Part shown: positions 4,007 to 33,685 of the stretch, piece after piece | How the letters are laid out: each line of letters begins with the position of its first letter | Position numbering within the stretch: the stretch's first letter is position 1 | Virus record (IMG/VR): IMGVR_UViG_3300025713_000650 | Location: 32,001 to 96,000 of that record | Strand: one strand, 5' to 3' | Length of the DNA stretch: 64,000 nt | From: a virus | Taxonomy: Duplodnaviria; Caudoviricetes | The notes under the pieces: generated by a model | What the model was told of the DNA's origin: nothing | The model's database searches: none | The model's input: only the letters and a program-made list of their open reading frames with translations | Program-made: the position numbers and the translations under genes

Positions 4007-5875
4007 TTATTCCTCCTCTTGTTTTTTAGTTATCATTTTTATAAAATCCAATTCGGTTATAATGGGAATACCGTGTTTCTTTGCTTTTAAATATTTTGAA
4101 GAAGAAGATGATTCATTAGTAATTAAATATTTAGTATTTTTACTGATTGTCCCTAATGAAATCCCATTTTCATTTAATATTTTTTCAAACCTGTTTCTAG
4201 GCATTGACAATTTACCTGTAACTGCAACTGAATATTTTATTTTCCTCTCTTCTAATTGCTCATTTGAAATTGGAATAATTTTTGATAATAAATTCCAAAA
4301 ATCATATTTTCTATATAATTCATTTTTAATATTTATAGGAACATCTAATGTATTAATTTCACTTAATAAGAATGTTTCGGGAACTACTTTTCTTAAAGCA
4401 TATGATGCAGATTTACCCAAACCTGTTAAATTACAAATATACCAAAATTCAGATATTGTAAAATTATTATTAAATTTCTTTAATAAATTATATTCTAATT
4501 CTGTTATTAATTTTCCATAATGATTCCCAAATAAATTTTGATTATCTTCTAATCTTTTTTCTTTATTTACATTTTTTAAATATTCAACTAACTCACAAAC
4601 TAAAGATACTGTTTTATATTTATTTATCCATTCTTCTAATGTATTAGGACCCAAACCATCAGGAATACCAGATATTTCTAAAATCTTTAAAATATTACCT
4701 TTTATTCTTGCAGGACAATCTAAATTGTTGCAAACTAAATGAACGCTTTCCCAATCTAAATGAAATCCACAAACAGGACATCTTTCAGGAAGATCAACTT
4801 CTTGTTCTTGTAAAACATTTCTAATATAAGGTATAACATCACCAGATCTTATAACAGTAATTAATGAATTTCTATTTAAGCCATTATCTTTAATATACTG
4901 AGCGTTGTGAGCTGTAATATTTTGGATGTTTGCTTGACAAATAAAAATAGGTTTTTTAAGTTTAACAACGGGAATAACTCTTCCTGATATTCCTGTTTTC
5001 CATATTATATCCTCAACTAAACCTACACCAGTTTCACCTTCAAATTTATAAGCTATCATATTTTCAATAATATCTTTTCCACTTCTTATAACTGAATTTT
5101 TATTTATAACTAAACCATCAATAGGAAATAAAAATTTTATTTTTTCATATATTTCTTTAAGATTTTCTACATTTATTTCATCAATAAAAGAATAAATTGG
5201 AAAATCATCAAAAAACCCCCAACTAGATAAATAAGTAAATATATCTGTTTTATAATCAACTTTATATGATTTATCTTCTAAAATTCTAATACTATATGGA
5301 ATAAATTCTACCATATCTAAATCTTTTGTAATTTCATCACGATTTAAAATTCCTGAAACATAATTTCTTGGAGATGGAATATCTCTATTTTTTAATTCTT
5401 GTTCATATTTAATAGGAATAATACATTCACCTCTTATTGATAATAAACCTTTTGGTAAATTATGAATATTATATTTTTCTAAAATATATTTTATTTTATT
5501 TGTGCAAACTCTTCCATTTAACCCATCACCTCTTGATAATGCTTTTATTAAAATACCATTTTGATAATATAAAACAAAAGAACCTCCATCAAATTTTGGA
5601 GAGATAATAACATTTTTTGTAAAATCATAAGGAATATTTTCATTATATTTAAATTTTGAATTTATTGATCCAACTAAAGATCCAATGTGTCTTGATTTAC
5701 TTTTTTCTTCAGGTTTATATCCCCAACCGACAGATTGTAATATCTCAGAATTTGGATTTTGTATTTTTAAAATCTCAACTAAATTATCAAATTCTTCATC
5801 AGTAATAAACGCTTGACCTTCATAATATGATTTACTTGCAGAAATGATTTTTAATTCTAAATCTGAATATTCCAT
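4007..5875 (-). CDS. ligA: NAD-dependent DNA ligase
   Basis: YYEG..ITDEEFD Ia domain, KFDG adenylation motif, RSGDVIP OB fold, C4 zinc finger, C-terminal BRCT (VTGKL). Confidence 0.95.
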   Translation of the reverse strand: MEYSDLELKIISASKSYYEGQAFITDEEFDNLVEILKIQNPNSEILQSVGWGYKPEEKSKSRHIGSLVGSINSKFKYNENIPYDFTKNVIISPKFDGGSFVLYYQNGILIKALSRGDGLNGRVCTNKIKYILEKYNIHNLPKGLLSIRGECIIPIKYEQELKNRDIPSPRNYVSGILNRDEITKDLDMVEFIPYSIRILEDKSYKVDYKTDIFTYLSSWGFFDDFPIYSFIDEINVENLKEIYEKIKFLFPIDGLVINKNSVIRSGKDIIENMIAYKFEGETGVGLVEDIIWKTGISGRVIPVVKLKKPIFICQANIQNITAHNAQYIKDNGLNRNSLITVIRSGDVIPYIRNVLQEQEVDLPERCPVCGFHLDWESVHLVCNNLDCPARIKGNILKILEISGIPDGLGPNTLEEWINKYKTVSLVCELVEYLKNVNKEKRLEDNQNLFGNHYGKLITELEYNLLKKFNNNFTISEFWYICNLTGLGKSASYALRKVVPETFLLSEINTLDVPINIKNELYRKYDFWNLLSKIIPISNEQLEERKIKYSVAVTGKLSMPRNRFEKILNENGISLGTISKNTKYLITNESSSSSKYLKAKKHGIPIITELDFIKMITKKQEEE

Positions 5876-17202: not shown

Positions 17203-17297
17203 AATTTTATTTCCTCCTAAAAATCACTCTCTATAATAAATAAAGTTTATAATTTTTTTAATTTGTTCTAATTAAAAATTAAGAATATCAAATTTTT

Positions 17298-17816
17298 TTA
17301 ATTTTCTATTTTTTTTAAAAATTTTTTCATTATAAATAATGTTTTTATCCAGTTATCAAATTGAATAGCCATATCATCAATATAAGCAACTGCGGGTATT
17401 TTTATGCATGTAATATCATCATAATAAATATTATGTTTCTTTAAATATTTTTCAATATCTATTTTAGATTGTCTTGTTTTTTCTTCATCACCATTATTTG
17501 CTTCTAAACTTAACCTTGCTGTAAAAATAACAATTCTAAAATATTTACTTAAAATATCAATTGCTTTTTTTACACCATTCGTAGGTACATCATAAATAGT
17601 CCCATCATTAAATCCTTTAGAATATTTATGAATGGGACCATCAAAATCAATTAAAATATTTAATTTTCTTTCGGGTTTTTCATTTGATTCTTCTAATTCT
17701 TCTTTTTCCTTTTTATCTGTAATTTCATTGCCTCCTGGAAAACTATCTATTGCAAAAACTGATTCTAATTCACCATTTAATTTTTTTTCTAAAAGTTTAA
17801 ATATTTCTTTTTTCAT
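17298..17816 (-). CDS. HAD-superfamily phosphatase / nucleotidase-like
   Basis: IDFDG motif I, IFTAR motif II, K.PA..YIDD motifs III/IV. Confidence 0.85.
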   Translation of the reverse strand: MKKEIFKLLEKKLNGELESVFAIDSFPGGNEITDKKEKEELEESNEKPERKLNILIDFDGPIHKYSKGFNDGTIYDVPTNGVKKAIDILSKYFRIVIFTARLSLEANNGDEEKTRQSKIDIEKYLKKHNIYYDDITCIKIPAVAYIDDMAIQFDNWIKTLFIMKKFLKKIEN

Positions 17817-17880
17817 TTTGGCTCCTTTGTTTTTTGTTCTAAAATAAGTATATTCTTGACAAAAAAAAATTATTAAATTA

Positions 17881-17995
17881 GAGTGAGAATAGCCATAAGA
17901 TATCCCGATGATATCTCATTTCGCTTCCCCTCACTCACGGGGCGAACATCTCTACGTTTATGAAAGAGGAGGAAATACTAAACGTAGATAGGGCT
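17881..17995 (-). ncRNA. pseudoknotted RNA motif, copy A
   Basis: Hairpin; UUCGC-CCC[GUGAGUGAG]GGG-AA-GCGAA; hairpin; AUUCUCACUC tail pairing with the loop. Confidence 0.7.
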
Positions 17996-18033
17996 GGGGC
18001 TTCTTTAAAAGAGATATTTATCTTATATATTTA

Positions 18034-18054
18034 TTCAAATATTAATATATATAG
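18034..18054 (-). promoter_or_regulatory. phage promoter motif copy 4
   Basis: CTATATATATTAATATTTGAA, directly upstream of RNA motif A. Confidence 0.6.
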
Positions 18055-18056
18055 AC

Positions 18057-18986
18057 TCAATTCTTTATAAATGACTGTAAATTATTATAAAAATTTGAAA
18101 TAATATTCCAATTTTTTAATTCAGGAACTTTATTATAATTAATTATATAATAATTAATTTTCTCAATTAGCTCCTTACTTGTATTATAAATATATTCTTT
18201 TGGTAATAATTCAGGATAAGAACATCGGTTAGGAGCTAAAACAATAGTATTATTTAAAATAGCTTCAAGTATACTATAATTAAATGTATCTTCTTTACCT
18301 GTTATCAATAATATTTTACCTTGTGATAGAAATTTATAATATTCTAACCACGAATTATTATTATTATTTCTTTTTATTTTTCCAAATATTTTTTCAACTT
18401 TTTTTTCAACTGATCTTGTTATTTTTTGTTTACAAGGTCTAGCTACAGATATAATATCAAATATTTTTTTTTCATTGAATGATGGATAAGGTGGAATAGG
18501 TAAACCAATAACCTCAATATTTTTCCATCCTAATTTGTTTGCATGATATTCAGATCCAACAAATATTTTATCAAATAATTTTGATTGTCCTGTTTCAACA
18601 AGCCATTTAGATTCTCTATCCATTTCAAAATAATCTAATTTATTTTTTGATGTTCCATGAACATATGCAAACATTTTTCTTGTTTTCTTATGATGTAATA
18701 TATTTGAAAATAATCCAGGGAATGATAAATCATTTAAATATAAATAATCTATGTCTTTTGTATCTAAATCCATAAATTGTTTTATTTGAGAAAGTTCAAA
18801 ATCTATAGCTGAATTTATTGGAGAAAACATCTCATCTGTTTTGTCACTTAAAATATCTTGTTTTAATTCACCTAATGTAATTACATTTTTAAATTTTCTT
18901 TCAAAAAAATTTTTGATACTAGAATAATGCCATTGTTGGTATCTCATTTTTGTTGGAAATTGCGGTACATAAATTATTTTAGACAT
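18057..18986 (-). CDS. glycosyltransferase (GT-B, family 4-like)
   Basis: EDTFNYSILEA..N..VLAPNRCSYPEL donor-binding motif; true start MSKIIY with GGAG RBS (the track start at 19061 lies inside RNA motif B). Confidence 0.85.
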   Translation of the reverse strand: MSKIIYVPQFPTKMRYQQWHYSSIKNFFERKFKNVITLGELKQDILSDKTDEMFSPINSAIDFELSQIKQFMDLDTKDIDYLYLNDLSFPGLFSNILHHKKTRKMFAYVHGTSKNKLDYFEMDRESKWLVETGQSKLFDKIFVGSEYHANKLGWKNIEVIGLPIPPYPSFNEKKIFDIISVARPCKQKITRSVEKKVEKIFGKIKRNNNNNSWLEYYKFLSQGKILLITGKEDTFNYSILEAILNNTIVLAPNRCSYPELLPKEYIYNTSKELIEKINYYIINYNKVPELKNWNIISNFYNNLQSFIKN

Positions 18987-19018
18987 TTTTTCTCCATTTA
19001 AAAAATTGTAAAGCAAAA

Positions 19019-19119
19019 AAGTGAGAATGTCTGTTTTACATAATTTACGTAAAACATCCACTTACCCTCACTTACGGTGTGGAATATTCTTAATTATAAG
19101 AAATTTACAATTAAGAATA
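19019..19119 (-). ncRNA. pseudoknotted RNA motif, copy B (5' leader of the glycosyltransferase)
   Basis: Hairpin; UCCAC-ACC[GUAAGUGAG]GGU-AA-GUGGA; hairpin; AUUCUCACUU tail; G-U wobbles favour the minus strand. Confidence 0.7.
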
Positions 19120-19174
19120 CGATCCTAAAGTTGTAACAACGCATGAGTACATCAATATTTTTAAATATGTCTAT

Positions 19175-19639
19175 TTAAATTAACCATTTACATCTACCTT
19201 CAAATAAGATAAATGTTTTATCATATTCCCATAGTTTATTCTGTAAAGGATATATTTGATTCAAAAGAAATTCTTTATTATCTGGATTTTTAACCTTATG
19301 AATATATGGGGCTTTCATATTAATTGAATAAAATATTACATTATATCCACTTCTTAAAAATGATTCTCCTATTGCACCAATTTGTCTATGATCTGGATGA
19401 GTTTCATAAACAGGATCAGGAAAATAATAAGTATATTTTTTTTCAAAAGTTGAGAATGAATAATCAAATAATTGATCTTTAATATTAGGCAATAAACTTT
19501 TTAAATTTTTCGCTTCATCTATCCTATTCATATTTTCAGGATGAGTATAATATATTATAAATTCTTCATCTGGGTTACAAATTAATTCAAAACATCCAAT
19601 TATTTCATCATCACAATGGGGAGCATAAATAATATTCAT
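19175..19639 (-). CDS. PIG-L/LmbE family N-acetyl-sugar deacetylase
   Basis: APHCDDE..G and HPDH metal-binding motifs. Confidence 0.85.
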   Translation of the reverse strand: MNIIYAPHCDDEIIGCFELICNPDEEFIIYYTHPENMNRIDEAKNLKSLLPNIKDQLFDYSFSTFEKKYTYYFPDPVYETHPDHRQIGAIGESFLRSGYNVIFYSINMKAPYIHKVKNPDNKEFLLNQIYPLQNKLWEYDKTFILFEGRCKWLI

Positions 19640-20076: not shown

Positions 20077-20128
20077 GTGTATTACCTGTAAATTTCTTTT
20101 AACTAAATTACCGAGAAGTCCTCCACTT

Positions 20129-21442
20129 CTAAGCGTAAGCGAAAGTGGAGGATGAATCGGTTATCCAATTGTTGTTTCTACACGCCAATCGAATTTTTTC
20201 TGTGCTAATTTGCTTATATTTAGATGTTGTTTGTAAATAATTACCTTGTATATCTTGCACATATACCCAATTACCAGTGAATCCCGATATAAAACCAATC
20301 TTATTTATTTCTGGTATATACACTTTATCCCACAAGCACCACTTCTTTTCTTTTACAATTATTTCTTTTGTATTTTTGCTATTTCTTTTTGCTTTCCTAT
20401 TAGGTTCTTTTCTACCTTTACGCGGTATTTCTTCATGTAAACTACGTTTCTTTTTACGTACCTGCTTTATATAATATATATTATCGCTATACTTCATTGG
20501 TTTTATATTTGCAATTACTACTGCATCGTTTATATGCGACTTTTCTATATTCCACTCTTTACGTTTTCTGCGTGTGTATAGTCCAAAAGTATATTGCGTT
20601 GGTGTTATTTCTTGTAGTTTAGGTACAAGATAATCTTTTAGTACATTCATAAATGCCGTTTCCTGAAATTGCTTTATCTTAGGTAGATTTTTACCTGTAA
20701 ATTCTTTGTATTCCATGTTGTCTTTTGCTTTATTATGCGCTTCACAACTACATACTAAATTGCTTGGATTATTGCTACCACCCTTGCTTCTTGGTATAAT
20801 ATGGTCTACTTCAAGAATATCATTGCAAGGTATGTCTGGTCTTAATTTTGCATAATGACAAGTAAAATTATCTCTTATTTTTACATATTCTTTTACGCTA
20901 TCATATCCATACATTTCTCCCTGTTGATATTCTATACCATTAATATCTGGATTAACTAATGCCTGTGTATCAAATTGCCCTATTTCTACTCTTATTCTGC
21001 TTATTGGTAGAATTTTTACAATATCATTTACAAGTCTTATATGAGCATTAATCCTTGATTGTATACTTGGCGGTAACCATCCTTTTTTTCTTTTTCTATT
21101 TAAGAACCTTGCTTTTCTATACCTTGTTTTTCTATTACGTCTTGCATGTCGAAGTCGTCTCCTTGTATGAATATTCTCTTTTATGTCTTGTCTTAATTCT
21201 GCTTCGGCACGATAAAGCACATTACCTTGTTCCGTTGTAACTGCCACACCTATATGTTTGCTTCCTGCGTCAATACCTAATACACATTCTTGTATTTGAT
21301 TTTCACACTCAAATAATAATTGAATTGTAAATGGTTCATATTTTACTATTTTAGCCTTCTTGTTTTTCAGCAATTTTCTTGCCTTAGCAGGCTTGCAAGG
21401 CATTAAAGGCTTACCTTCTATTGAAACTACATATACTAACAT
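20129..21442 (-). CDS. iscB: RNA-guided endonuclease IscB
   Basis: PLMP domain, RuvC-I GIDAG, RRxRR bridge helix, RuvC-II E, HNH (DHIIP..GG.N..NL...C..HN), RuvC-III SHINDA. Confidence 0.95.
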   Translation of the reverse strand: MLVYVVSIEGKPLMPCKPAKARKLLKNKKAKIVKYEPFTIQLLFECENQIQECVLGIDAGSKHIGVAVTTEQGNVLYRAEAELRQDIKENIHTRRRLRHARRNRKTRYRKARFLNRKRKKGWLPPSIQSRINAHIRLVNDIVKILPISRIRVEIGQFDTQALVNPDINGIEYQQGEMYGYDSVKEYVKIRDNFTCHYAKLRPDIPCNDILEVDHIIPRSKGGSNNPSNLVCSCEAHNKAKDNMEYKEFTGKNLPKIKQFQETAFMNVLKDYLVPKLQEITPTQYTFGLYTRRKRKEWNIEKSHINDAVVIANIKPMKYSDNIYYIKQVRKKKRSLHEEIPRKGRKEPNRKAKRNSKNTKEIIVKEKKWCLWDKVYIPEINKIGFISGFTGNWVYVQDIQGNYLQTTSKYKQISTEKIRLACRNNNWITDSSSTFAYA

Positions 21443-21687
21443 TTTGGCTTTACGCCCTCCTTTTTGGAGTTATTTGCCCATCCCCAATGTTGGAATAACT
21501 TTGCAGTATAACTGCCAATTGTGGTTGACCGTTCCTACCCATCAGAACTTTTACAGAGCCACCTTAGAGCCTGAAACTTGGGCATCATTTCAGGGTAAGA
21601 TAATTATTCCAACGTAGTCAGTTAAGACTTAGGGTAGTCAACTAAGGCTTTTACAAGCCTCCGTTTCTATAAACGGGGGTAGTTGAC
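21443..21687 (-). ncRNA. omegaRNA (HEARO) scaffold of IscB; guide derives from 21688 onward
   Basis: GTCAACTACCCCC...GGCTTGTAAAAGCC..GTTGACTA.CCTAAG...CTACGTT...GCTCT...AACATTGG directly 5' of iscB. Confidence 0.9.
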
Positions 21688-21757
21688 ATATTCAGGTTTA
21701 ACCATTTCTTTAACTGTTTGTTCAACTTGACCTTTATAATATAAATATACCTCCTTC

Positions 21758-30754: not shown

Positions 30755-33685
30755 TTAATCAATATCACCTAAAATTATATTATCTAAATGTCTATCTAAT
30801 AAAGTTCCTTTATTTGAAAGATTATTTAACCCTCTATCAATATTTTTCATTGAACTAATCATACTACTTGAAACATTCATTATCATATTTGTATTATTTT
30901 GTTGTGAATTTTTAAATAATTCTTCATTTGCCTTTTGTGAATTTTTATTATTTGCTGAAATAGAATTTTTTATTAATAATTCTTTTGTTATATCATTTTC
31001 TATTAACATATTTTTATCAACTAATTTCCCTTTTGTTGAATCAGAAATATTTTGTTTATTAAATTTAGCCATTTCTATAAATAAACCACTTCTTATATTC
31101 TCTGGAGATATTCCCGATCTTTTCGCTTTTTCAACAATATAATCTGGAACAATAACTTCACCTTTTAATAATCTAGCATATCTTTCACGTTCATTATATC
31201 CACCTGTATGATATGATTTTGTTTTATTTAACATTGATTCATATTTTCCTACATCATATTTTCCTTTTTTGTTATATTCTTCAATTCTAGATTTTTGTCT
31301 TTCTCTGGCTCCTTCTAATGATTCTGTTATAGCTGAAGGATCAAATTTCTTTATTAAATTTATTACAAATCTTATCGGTGCAAGAATTACATTTTTTATA
31401 ACATTAAATACTTTTCCAATATCTATACCTATAAAATCAGAAATACTCTTTACTTTTTCTACAATATAATCTTTAACTTTACCCATTAACATTAACGTCA
31501 TTCTTATAGGAAATGTAACTAAATCCCATAATTTTTTAACCTGAAATTTGACTTCATTCCATGCTAAACTTAATCCTAAAGTAATATTTTTACCACCAAT
31601 AGCTCCTAGTAAACCACCTGTTATGGCTCCAATTATACCACCTATAAACGTTCCAACAATAGGTACCGTCGAACCTATTGCCATACCAGCACCTAATCCT
31701 TTCAATGCTCCAGATTTAGCTCCTGCCAAACCTTGTTTTGTACCACCAAGAGCACCACCAACTAAAGAAAAAACTCTTTCCGACATTGTTGCTTTTTCGC
31801 CCTTTTTTATTTTAAACCATTCTTTAGTTTTTAATAATCCTTTAAAAGAATCAAAAAGCATTTGAAAAAGACCAATAATTGAAGCAATTCCTGGTAAAAA
31901 TTTTGTAAATCCTATAGCAACTCTACTTATGGATAAAAGAGTTTTCAGTCCAAATTTTGAAAAAAATAAGCTAAATTTACTTAATCCTTTAGCAATTTTT
32001 CCAACATTTAATTTACCAATTCCTTTTATTAATCCGAATAATGGTTTTCTTAACATCATAGCTAACAAAAATGGAGATAATAAAATTTTAGCTGGTAATA
32101 AATATAATTTACCTAATAAATATAATAATAAAAATTGAATTTTTCCAATACCTTTACCGAAAAATTTCTTTTTATTTTCTTTTTCTAAGTCTTTACCCAT
32201 TCCTTTTTTAAAGAATTTATTAAGATGACCCATTACAGATGCGTGTGTTTTTTCTGTTTTTTCTTTAAATTTATTTTTTACAGTTGAATATTTTTCCTTA
32301 ATATCATTTTTTAAATCTTTTTTATGATATTCTCTAAATTGTTTATCATTTTTTAAGAGTGAAAGAAATTCTATTGATTTTTTAACATTCTCTTTTACAC
32401 TTTCTTTTGTTTTTTTAACATTCTCTTTTACACTTTCTTTTGTTTTTTTATATTTTTCAGAAATTACATTTTTTATTGAATTTTCTGAAGTTTCTGAGAT
32501 ATTTTCATTTTCTGCCTCTTTTTTACCGATAAAAGCAACTGCAAGATTTCTTAAATATTTTGTTTGATCTCTTATTGAAGCATATATAAAATTTAATGAA
32601 GTGACAACAAATTGAATAGGATTTTTCTTAGCTTTTTGTAAATCAGACATTGCAGTAGATTTGGTTATCTTTGATATTAAATTTCTTATTGGGAAATTAA
32701 AAATTTTTGATGCTGTAAAAATATATAATATTTTTCTAAATAAAGGACTTTTTAATAATCTTGCTCTAAATGATACAGCCAATTCATTTGATAAAGATGT
32801 TATACCTGTTCTCATTTTCATTACTTCGGTAATTAATTTATCAAAATAAACCGAAATAACGGAAGCTGGTGAAATAACTTCTCCAGCATGAACATTTACT
32901 AAACCACTTTTTTTAACAAAACCACCTTTTTTAAGTGATGGAATATCATCTAGTTCATTTTTAATATTTTTATTACCAAAAATTGCATGTTTAATACCAC
33001 TTAAAAATTTGAATGGGGATTTTATTAAAAAAGCTAAAAATTTAAATGGTAGTGCTATTGCTTTAAAAGGTAATTTTAATAATAATTTTATTGTATCTGT
33101 AATAAATCCAAAAATACCTCTCTTTTTAAATTCATCATGTGCATAATCAGCTGCATCTCTAAAATTCTCTTTCATTCTGTCGGCAAAAGATGAAAAAACT
33201 CTTGTATCCATAAATTTTGATACAAAATAACCAAAAATTGGTGTTGATTGTGCTAACATTGTAGCCATGTAATTAGATTTATTAAATTGTATATCTTCAT
33301 TTATTGTTGATGATATTTTAGTAACCGCATGTTTTGATGATTTAGCAGTTCCTACTAAAATATTTTTTGCTGTTTTAGATACATCATCAACAACAAAACC
33401 TAATTTTCTAAGAATAACCACAATTGAATTATTTACTTCTTTAATTCCTTCAGCATATCCTATTTCTTTTGTTCTTAACATTTTTGCAGATTCTAACTGA
33501 GTTTTAGAAACAGAAGAAATTCTTTTTGTAATTTCATTCAATTGTTTAGTATTTTTTTCTTGATATTTTCTTATTAAATCAACAGTAGAATCGATTTTAT
33601 ATAAATTATTATTTTCATCTTCTAAATCTGATTCATTAGCTAAATCTTCAATATCATCAAAATCATCATAATCATCATAATCCAT
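30755..33685 (-). CDS. tape-measure-like tail protein
   Basis: Helical and Lys-rich, Gly-rich hydrophobic segment, two GG...H/L.GEVI.P motifs. Confidence 0.65.
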   Translation of the reverse strand: MDYDDYDDFDDIEDLANESDLEDENNNLYKIDSTVDLIRKYQEKNTKQLNEITKRISSVSKTQLESAKMLRTKEIGYAEGIKEVNNSIVVILRKLGFVVDDVSKTAKNILVGTAKSSKHAVTKISSTINEDIQFNKSNYMATMLAQSTPIFGYFVSKFMDTRVFSSFADRMKENFRDAADYAHDEFKKRGIFGFITDTIKLLLKLPFKAIALPFKFLAFLIKSPFKFLSGIKHAIFGNKNIKNELDDIPSLKKGGFVKKSGLVNVHAGEVISPASVISVYFDKLITEVMKMRTGITSLSNELAVSFRARLLKSPLFRKILYIFTASKIFNFPIRNLISKITKSTAMSDLQKAKKNPIQFVVTSLNFIYASIRDQTKYLRNLAVAFIGKKEAENENISETSENSIKNVISEKYKKTKESVKENVKKTKESVKENVKKSIEFLSLLKNDKQFREYHKKDLKNDIKEKYSTVKNKFKEKTEKTHASVMGHLNKFFKKGMGKDLEKENKKKFFGKGIGKIQFLLLYLLGKLYLLPAKILLSPFLLAMMLRKPLFGLIKGIGKLNVGKIAKGLSKFSLFFSKFGLKTLLSISRVAIGFTKFLPGIASIIGLFQMLFDSFKGLLKTKEWFKIKKGEKATMSERVFSLVGGALGGTKQGLAGAKSGALKGLGAGMAIGSTVPIVGTFIGGIIGAITGGLLGAIGGKNITLGLSLAWNEVKFQVKKLWDLVTFPIRMTLMLMGKVKDYIVEKVKSISDFIGIDIGKVFNVIKNVILAPIRFVINLIKKFDPSAITESLEGARERQKSRIEEYNKKGKYDVGKYESMLNKTKSYHTGGYNERERYARLLKGEVIVPDYIVEKAKRSGISPENIRSGLFIEMAKFNKQNISDSTKGKLVDKNMLIENDITKELLIKNSISANNKNSQKANEELFKNSQQNNTNMIMNVSSSMISSMKNIDRGLNNLSNKGTLLDRHLDNIILGDID
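32378..32450. repeat. 33-bp tandem duplication (KKTKESVKENV x2)
   Basis: Two exact copies, in frame. Confidence 0.85.

Follow-up and report, generated by a model that had tools for sequence, protein, structure and literature searches.

A lineage-specific pseudoknotted RNA motif preceding glycosyltransferase-like and HAD-like genes in two closely related phages

In the small exonuclease-resistant RNAs (xrRNAs) of plant viruses, the apical loop of a bulged stem-loop pairs with a 3' tail. The gene 32 pseudoknot of phages T4 and T2, located upstream of an ssDNA-binding protein gene whose product binds it, is a compact H-type fold with a 7-bp second stem and a loop 1 of 1 to 2 nt, and an A/U-rich unstructured stretch leads from it to the ribosome-binding site (RBS). 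The consensus of the pistol ribozyme has its pseudoknot strand placed between P2 and P3; another hairpin comes next, and then the strand that closes P2. Pistol (RF02679), in which a hairpin loop pairs with a downstream strand, is common in phage-rich metagenomes (PMC4604425), and the leader of T4 gene 32 carries a translational operator (PMC10690425). The preQ1-II riboswitch (RF01054) is an HLout-type three-stem pseudoknot with four pairing regions, among them a hairpin embedded before the 3' strand. That strand holds the Shine-Dalgarno (SD) sequence, which P3 occludes, a long U-rich J2-3 forms major-groove triples under the ligand, and a conserved C reads the ligand (PMC11625349). The element described here occurs as two copies, A and B, on either side of a glycosyltransferase-like gene in 64,000 nt of DNA from a large, uncultivated, AT-rich phage (Duplodnaviria; Caudoviricetes), positions 32,001 to 96,000 of IMG/VR record IMGVR_UViG_3300025713_000650; this whole stretch is referred to as the window. 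An initial annotation of the window had put the two copies forward as an unrecognised pseudoknotted RNA motif.

Direct reading confirmed two copies with identical P1, loop and tail geometry on the minus strand, as the initial annotation had claimed. Read 5' to 3' on this gene-sense strand, both consist of a variable hairpin (H1), a stem-loop (P1), a second variable hairpin (P2) and a 3' tail. P1 is an 8-bp stem with an AA bulge and a 9-nt loop, and the tail pairs with seven bases of that loop to form the helix S2. In copy A, P1 reads TTCGC-CCC-[GTGAGTGAG]-GGG-AA-GCGAA, followed by a 10-bp hairpin and then ...ATTCTCACTC; in copy B it reads TCCAC-ACC-[GTAAGTGAG]-GGT-AA-GTGGA, followed by an 11-bp hairpin and then ...ATTCTCACTT. 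The compact element measures approximately 66 nt, with its core at 17946-17881 in copy A and at 19083-19019 in copy B (minus strand); the end coordinates originally given for the copies take in H1 as well. The gap between H1 and P1 is 1 to 4 nt in all four copies now available, which comprise A and B and their orthologues, D and C respectively, on contig L146 of a sister phage. The parts of the element are located as follows.

19084 to 19120, minus strand: H1 of copy B, a 16-bp AU-rich stem with two G.U pairs and no U run after it.
19057 to 19083, minus strand: P1 of copy B, TCCAC-ACC / GGT-AA-GTGGA, with the 9-nt loop GTAAGTGAG at 19067-19075.
19032 to 19056, minus strand: P2 of copy B, a variable 11-bp hairpin with a 0-nt linker to P1.
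19019 to 19025, minus strand: the pseudoknot 3' strand of copy B, CTCACTT, pairing with loop bases 19067-19073 (S2).
17951 to 17988, minus strand: H1 of copy A, a stem of 10 bp topped by a CU-rich (anti-SD-like) loop of 18 nt.
17920 to 17946, minus strand: P1 of copy A, TTCGC-CCC / GGG-AA-GCGAA, with the loop GTGAGTGAG at 17930-17938.
17895 to 17919, minus strand: P2 of copy A, a variable hairpin of 10 bp including one G.U pair, abutting P1.
17881 to 17887, minus strand: the pseudoknot 3' strand of copy A, CTCACTC, pairing with loop bases 17930-17936.
17861 to 17869, minus strand: the T run of copy A, nine T starting 11 nt past the tail, with a T7-G counterpart in orthologue D.
L146:1328-1387: copy C, orthologue of copy B.
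L146:2500-2569: copy D, orthologue of copy A.

The sister phage was found both by a pattern scan of the JGI metagenomes, which recovered copy C, and through protein homologues. Its contig L146 was also seen as L144 and L147, and its glycosyltransferase is 83% identical to that of the window as a protein and 89% identical as a gene (nucleotide). The four P1a strands differ (TTCGC in A, TCCAC in B, TTCAC in C and TTTAC in D), and each has a matching 3' strand. In the four-sequence alignment, the 15 pairs of P1 and S2 were standard in 60/60 cells; five pairs, four of them in P1, had changed on both sides, and none had changed on one side only. Sliding the partners as a control reduced pairing to 25 to 53%, and none of the shuffles matched the observed pairing or covariation score, figures that come from four distinct but related sequences of two closely related phages and are not formal probabilities. 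Ten substitutions, all falling as five compensating pairs, would be hard to get without selection. The compensatory changes that had been pointed out in the stems and in the loop-tail pseudoknot of copies A and B are thus strengthened by copies C and D. Comparison of H1 between copies A and D gave three further compensatory pairs around the conserved CU-rich loop, while strain-level contigs of the window's own phage carried identical copies of the element.

Between orthologues, the 18-nt segment made up of P1b, loop, P1b, AA and G was identical at 18/18 positions. The spacers of the two phages were 54 to 58% identical with many indels, and codon third positions were 63 to 86% identical. The tail reads (A)TTCTCACTY across the copies, with CTCACTY conserved except for one compensated change in copy B; the sequence of S2 and the AA bulge are nearly invariant, and the sequence of P1a drifts. 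The P2 hairpins of orthologues are unrelated in sequence yet are hairpins throughout, and H1 of copies B and C shares the base of the stem, the top having been replaced. H1 and P2 are therefore needed as helices only, with the core constrained in sequence. The P2 arms of copy B (TGTTTTA...TAAAACA, 19032-19056) recur in swapped order in copy D (TAAAACA...TGTTTTA, L146:2528-2553), probably by chance, which in sequence this rich in AT has odds of roughly a few per cent. Pairing between copies, the loop of one with the tail of the other, was rejected, because the pair that went from G-C to A-U in copy B has both of its changes in that copy. As judged from the aligned sequences, the motif is a selected RNA element whose fold has been kept at both sites in the sister phage by compensating mutations.

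S2 involves loop bases 3 to 9, leaving a loop 1 of 2 nt (GU) and 0 bases between S2 and the 3' strand of P1, and the junction between P1 and P2 is 0 to 1 nt. The S2 duplex has a predicted energy of -7 to -9 kcal/mol and is followed by U6 to U8 in copies B, C and D. These dimensions fit an H-type pseudoknot in which P2 lies inside loop 3 and is stacked under P1, with room for a continuous P2-P1-S2 stack. In the pseudoknot-free minimum free energy (MFE) fold, G.U pairs lengthen S2 so that it takes in the GGG of P1. Alternation of P1 with this G.U-extended S2, as a switch, was considered and rejected: copy D has an A where a U is required and the extension is not conserved, and the pseudoknot is therefore the better model. 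The element is, with high confidence, a sense-strand, lineage-specific, cis-acting structured RNA composed of H1, P1, P2 and the S2 pseudoknot with its 2-nt loop 1.

P1 and S2 contain no G.U pairs, and the strand was called on H1, P2, the folding energies and gene orientation. The original argument that G-U wobbles favour the minus strand accordingly holds for H1 and P2, whose G.U pairs would be C.A mismatches on the plus strand, and is joined by the folding energies, but it does not extend to P1 and S2. Copy A folds at -37.6 kcal/mol in sense and -30.9 kcal/mol in antisense orientation (z-score -3.1), and copy B at -39.3 and -24.6 kcal/mol (z-score -8.4). With a window G+C content of 20 to 34%, averaging approximately 24%, the G+C-rich cores stand out. 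The 13-mer core occurs twice in the window, both times at these copies, with 0.22 occurrences expected and two or more found in 2/100 shuffles, and the exact tail 9-mer is present in the window at these two sites only. Likewise, a structural descriptor that required P1, its bulge and a tail complementary to the loop matched nowhere in the 64 kb except at these two sites, compared with 0 to 2 loose matches in shuffles. A covariance model run with filters off scored the two copies at 79 and 70 bits, the next match reaching 17 bits (E ~1).

The Rfam check for a known family gave nothing at the locus, either at gathering thresholds over the whole window or with permissive filters (E<=10) on stretches of 141, 1,421 and 1,601 nt; at E<=10 the three short stretches returned noise only (microRNA, small nucleolar RNA and long noncoding RNA families) and no riboswitch. 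The suggestion of a selected RNA structure with a loop-tail pseudoknot unmatched in Rfam is now carried by four sequences instead of two. The initial annotation had also remarked on a likeness to preQ1-II. The topology is indeed shared: a hairpin comes first on the 5' side, the loop of the next stem pairs with the 3' tail, and another hairpin is embedded between that stem and the tail; the HLout order H1, P1, P2, S2 is read from the sequence, and P1 and S2 are backed by covariation. Unlike preQ1-II, however, the tail contains no SD and has a U run after it, S2 and the P1 3' strand adjoin with no base in between, and loop 1, at 2 nt (GU), is too short for the U-rich triplex of preQ1-II to form. 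The element occurs in a phage, whereas preQ1-II is found in Bacillota queT leaders, and it gave no RF01054 score at E<=10. With the SD in the 3' strand, the U-rich J2-3 and the family match all absent, membership in preQ1-II was rejected.

The T4/T2 gene 32 leader is alike in placing an H-type pseudoknot and an A/U-rich stretch up to the RBS in a large-phage mRNA leader. It differs from the element, which has an embedded hairpin, a bulged 8-bp first stem and two copies, which precedes glycosyltransferase-like and HAD-like genes rather than the gene of a protein that binds single-stranded DNA, and which has no sequence similarity to it. Intrinsic terminators and attenuators share a G+C-containing helix ending at a U run. 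A stable helix 0 to 3 nt before at least five U is present in copies B, C and D but not in copy A with its 11-nt gap; unlike a terminator stem, the helix is long-range and pseudoknotted and has a conserved upstream hairpin. Pistol resembles the element in that a hairpin loop forms a 6- to 7-bp pseudoknot with a downstream strand, but in the element the tail comes last. No Rfam match at E<=10 was obtained for the pistol, twister, hammerhead, hatchet and HDV-like ribozyme families. Plant virus xrRNAs have a comparable bulged stem-loop with loop-tail pairing; the element differs in having no inferable ring geometry, an extra hairpin between stem and tail, and no family match.

Membership in the HEARO/IscB omegaRNAs was rejected as well, since no family match was found at the element and it has no similarity to the HEARO (RF02033) copies of the window, which lie at 21469-21687 and 998-1209 only and share nothing in sequence with the motif. 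Mimicry of a CRISPR repeat or omegaRNA was likewise discarded, no similarity having been found. The first of the HEARO copies belongs to a separate observation. An IscB gene (RRXRR plus HNH, 20129-21442) and the HEARO omegaRNA at 21469-21687 lie within 20103-21741 (minus strand) and are absent from strain contigs with identical flanks (259/259 and 503/503), which instead contain a 158-bp stretch (L304:8802-8959) that is part of a 59-aa open reading frame. It looks as though the IscB element was recently gained or lost within one phage population.

Searches for further members were largely negative. Exact loop-plus-tail patterns, which would miss D-type tails, gave chance matches only in IMG/VR besides this phage and its sister, and in the JGI metagenomes recovered copy C and otherwise chance matches. 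The P1 core pattern alone gave chance matches only in IMG/VR and the GTDB genomes besides the same two phages, and INPHARED (cultured phages) yielded no match at either the DNA or the protein level. In synteny searches the motif was absent upstream of homologues of the 172-aa HAD-like gene and likewise around glycosyltransferase homologues of 54 to 57% identity; in relatives carrying the latter, the gene is packed tightly against its neighbours. The covariance model returned no member from the whole IMG/VR records of relatives, its hits being antisense to coding sequence, and no further copy in the 20 kb of genome beyond either end of the window. Absence of further homologues had been named at the outset as a result that would count against a selected structure, and this came about in half: orthologues exist in one sister phage, and none were found beyond this narrow lineage. 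The element looks confined to that lineage and to two fixed sites. By these comparisons the RNA motif is real, is matched by no family in Rfam and did not turn up in any other sequence that was searched. In one distant relative (L309:1952-5829; glycosyltransferase 57% identical), a Ro60/TROVE protein was encoded and the preceding 2.2 kb had no called gene; this uncalled stretch might hold Y-RNA-like or tRNA genes.

The neighbouring genes are all on the same (minus) strand, and the genes downstream of the two copies are glycosyltransferase-like and HAD-like, in agreement with the initial annotation, as is the position of copy A after a phage promoter, here a repeated promoter-like motif at 18034-18051. 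The relevant features are given below.

19175 to 19639, minus strand: a 154-aa gene upstream of copy B, with a faint PIG-L-like match.
18057 to 18986, minus strand: the glycosyltransferase-like gene, 309 aa (ATG at 18986), between copies B and A, with a weak match to Pfam Glyco_trans_1_2.
18034 to 18051, minus strand: the phage promoter-like motif TATATATTAATATTTGAA, immediately past the stop codon of the glycosyltransferase gene, upstream of copy A.
17298 to 17816, minus strand: the HAD-like gene, 172 aa, downstream of copy A, with a match to PHROG 1238 (2e-12) and the motif DFDGP in the peptide DFDGPIHK.
3201, 6569, 18034, 29481, 48169, 59227 and 63771, minus strand: copies of the promoter-like motif.

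The public gene call for the glycosyltransferase is 333 aa (P0001) and starts with a GTG inside P1 of copy B. The gene has 401 homologues, some with PF13524 or PF00534, which are mostly 307 to 320 aa long, and the gene of the sister phage begins with an ATG that has GGAG before it; 18986 (309 aa) is the most likely position of the true start. The possibility that the element is coding sequence was rejected on the homologue lengths, the ATG start in the sister phage and the presence of spacer indels whose lengths are not divisible by three. In the sister phage, an additional 394-aa gene (L146:2674-3858, weak kinase and methyltransferase matches) is inserted between copy D and the HAD-like gene, and the element therefore stands at a point of gene-content change. 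It precedes a gene in 4/4 copies. GGAG-type SDs are located 25 to 100 nt downstream of the tail, and the distance from pseudoknot to SD, which is A/U-rich, varies threefold (33 to 105 nt).

The promoter-like motif, TATATATTAAT-W-W-N-TGAA, is present in seven near-identical copies, all on the minus (coding) strand, plus two looser matches. A 22-nt block including the 18034 copy is identical in the sister phage, the rest of that spacer being approximately 58% identical. Copy C has no such motif, and a dedicated promoter is therefore not required for the element. The phage encodes its own beta and beta' RNA polymerase subunits, and a QueC-family gene lies near the element. A second sequence, TTAGAACAAA, was observed on the minus strand at 17830-17842, just upstream of the HAD-like gene, and at 17259-17271, just upstream of a gene for a 238-aa virion protein, and again in the sister phage at about L146:2640-2655 and 4415-4430. 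It was not enriched in a crude count over the whole window; it could possibly represent a second promoter class.

For the function, the reading tentatively favoured, at clearly less than even confidence, is that the element would act in cis, within the leaders that precede the glycosyltransferase and HAD-like genes, as a conditional intrinsic terminator (attenuator). Formation of S2 as RNA polymerase leaves the tail would cause release of the transcript, P1 and P2 would keep the upstream strand of S2 in a pre-folded loop, and a stabiliser or blocker of the pseudoknot (a phage or host protein, or a sugar or DNA-modification metabolite) would set the level of read-through. Release is attributed to S2 because this is the only G+C-containing helix ending at or near the U run. 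U runs follow the element in all four copies, as had been stated for A and B, although that of copy A begins 11 nt past the tail. In copies B and C, six to eight consecutive U either overlap the tail or come straight after it, and in D a six-U run starts 3 nt after the tail, so that S2 ends at or within 3 nt of the U run in 3/4 copies. In copy B the linker GACATT directly precedes the tail CTCACTT, whose last two T start a run of six extending to 19015, with a G at 19014. A terminator scan found ordinary hairpin-plus-U terminators elsewhere in the phage and flagged the copy B site as terminator-like. No promoter-like motif is present in the 33 nt between copy B and the glycosyltransferase start codon; expression of this gene must therefore pass through copy B, which favours a partial or regulated stop over a full terminator. 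Copies A and D lie between the conserved promoter motif and a gene, the usual place for a leader attenuator. A single functional theme unites the downstream genes, which are those of a glycosyltransferase and a HAD-like phosphatase, joined in the sister phage by a kinase/methyltransferase-like gene.

Several observations weigh against a conditional terminator. The U run of copy A, 11 nt past S2, makes a poor terminator geometry, and U runs are common at 24% G+C, with 80 runs of at least six T on this strand of the window. The alternative fold expected of a classic switch, the G.U-extended S2 of the MFE structure, is absent in copy D. A terminator stem whose upstream strand sits in a folded hairpin loop approximately 45 nt away would be unusual, and, as only two closely related phages are involved, part of the conservation may reflect short divergence time. 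It is conceivable, though on balance unlikely, that the element represents a new regulatory RNA class in a lineage of large phages with their own multisubunit RNA polymerases, either as a pseudoknot-gated terminator tuned to those enzymes or as a new riboswitch or ribozyme controlling DNA sugar-modification genes.

Next to conditional termination, a role in mRNA stability or processing is possible, if on the unlikely side. H1 would then be a processing site or 3' stabiliser for the upstream transcript and the pseudoknot a decay-blocking 5' end for the downstream one, the decay being 5'-end-dependent (entry of ribonuclease [RNase] E or an RNase J-type exonuclease), by analogy with 5' stabiliser hairpins or viral exonuclease-resistant pseudoknots. 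This would suit the short distance at which P1 begins past H1 in every copy, the position before a gene in all four cases and the complete sequence turnover of H1 and P2 between orthologues, as these parts need only be hairpins; a coaxial P2-P1-S2 stack would also be mechanically robust. Such a role leaves the U run unexplained, and no nuclease cleavage motif was recognised in the element, nor did any Rfam xrRNA family match it.

An operator for an RNA-binding protein appears doubtful. The pseudoknot would, as in the leader of T4 gene 32, serve to nucleate a repressor of translation on the AU-rich, unstructured sequence that leads to the RBS. The layout of a pseudoknot followed by 33 to 105 nt of A/U-rich sequence to the SD corresponds to that of gene 32, and a near-invariant S2 and AA bulge next to a drifting P1a would be expected of a protein contact surface. 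However, the downstream genes encode enzymes rather than autoregulating nucleic-acid-binding proteins, and the threefold variation in the distance to the SD fits poorly. Pairing of the tail with the RBS was examined separately and rejected, being inconsistent across the four copies.

A new riboswitch for a sugar or 7-deazaguanine DNA-modification intermediate, in which the pseudoknot would be the aptamer and the U run would provide the expression platform, is improbable. The element does precede two different genes of one metabolic theme, has the topology of preQ1-II and has a QueC-family gene nearby, but the conserved unpaired bases from which a pocket could be built are few (GU, AA and approximately 3 nt before the tail). 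In addition, many relatives with the same glycosyltransferase gene lack the element, and no riboswitch family was recovered even at E<=10. A similarly low probability attaches to copies A and D being a stand-alone early small RNA (sRNA) of approximately 170 nt from promoter to U run, whose CU-rich H1 loop would bind SDs in trans, with B and C as its 3' untranslated region version. The perfectly conserved promoter motif directly upstream of A and D speaks for an sRNA, as does H1, in which the loop core TTTC(C)TCCTCTTTC (17961-17978; L146:2469-2486) is conserved while the stem covaries. The H1 loops of copies B and C are not CU-rich, however, copy C has no promoter, and complementarity between the H1 loop and the RBS (AGGAGGAAAC) in the sister phage amounts to only about 5 to 6 nt.

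Cutting of the polycistronic transcript between genes by a new class of self-cleaving ribozyme is quite improbable. It is typical of phage intergenic regions to harbour small pseudoknotted ribozymes whose peripheral hairpins vary, but the order of parts is unlike that of pistol, no known ribozyme family matched, few bases are both conserved and unpaired, and the distribution is very narrow. A DNA-level feature, be it the boundary of a cassette or of recombination, an inverted repeat bound by a protein, a miniature end of the IS200/605 type or a scaffold resembling an omegaRNA, is very improbable: one gene is bracketed by the copies as direct repeats, the genome has active IscB, HEARO and TnpB-type elements and TnpB omegaRNAs likewise pair a hairpin loop with a 3' strand, but the compensatory changes keep pairing rather than sequence, no similarity to HEARO or orphan omegaRNA sequences was found, the IscB indel ends approximately 1 kb away, and distant relatives without the motif have the glycosyltransferase in the same neighbourhood.

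Large uncultivated phages contain long noncoding spacers whose function is almost entirely obscure, and here such spacers contain an element that has cleanly compensated substitutions, a pseudoknot of defined geometry and a constant place before genes of what is probably a module for DNA or sugar modification. Being confined to two sister phages, it is of limited general importance, and if it is merely a stabilising structure, it would be a tidy but minor addition to phage RNA biology. If it is instead a regulated terminator, riboswitch or ribozyme, it would constitute a compact part of approximately 66 nt and would offer a handle on the timing of modification-enzyme expression.

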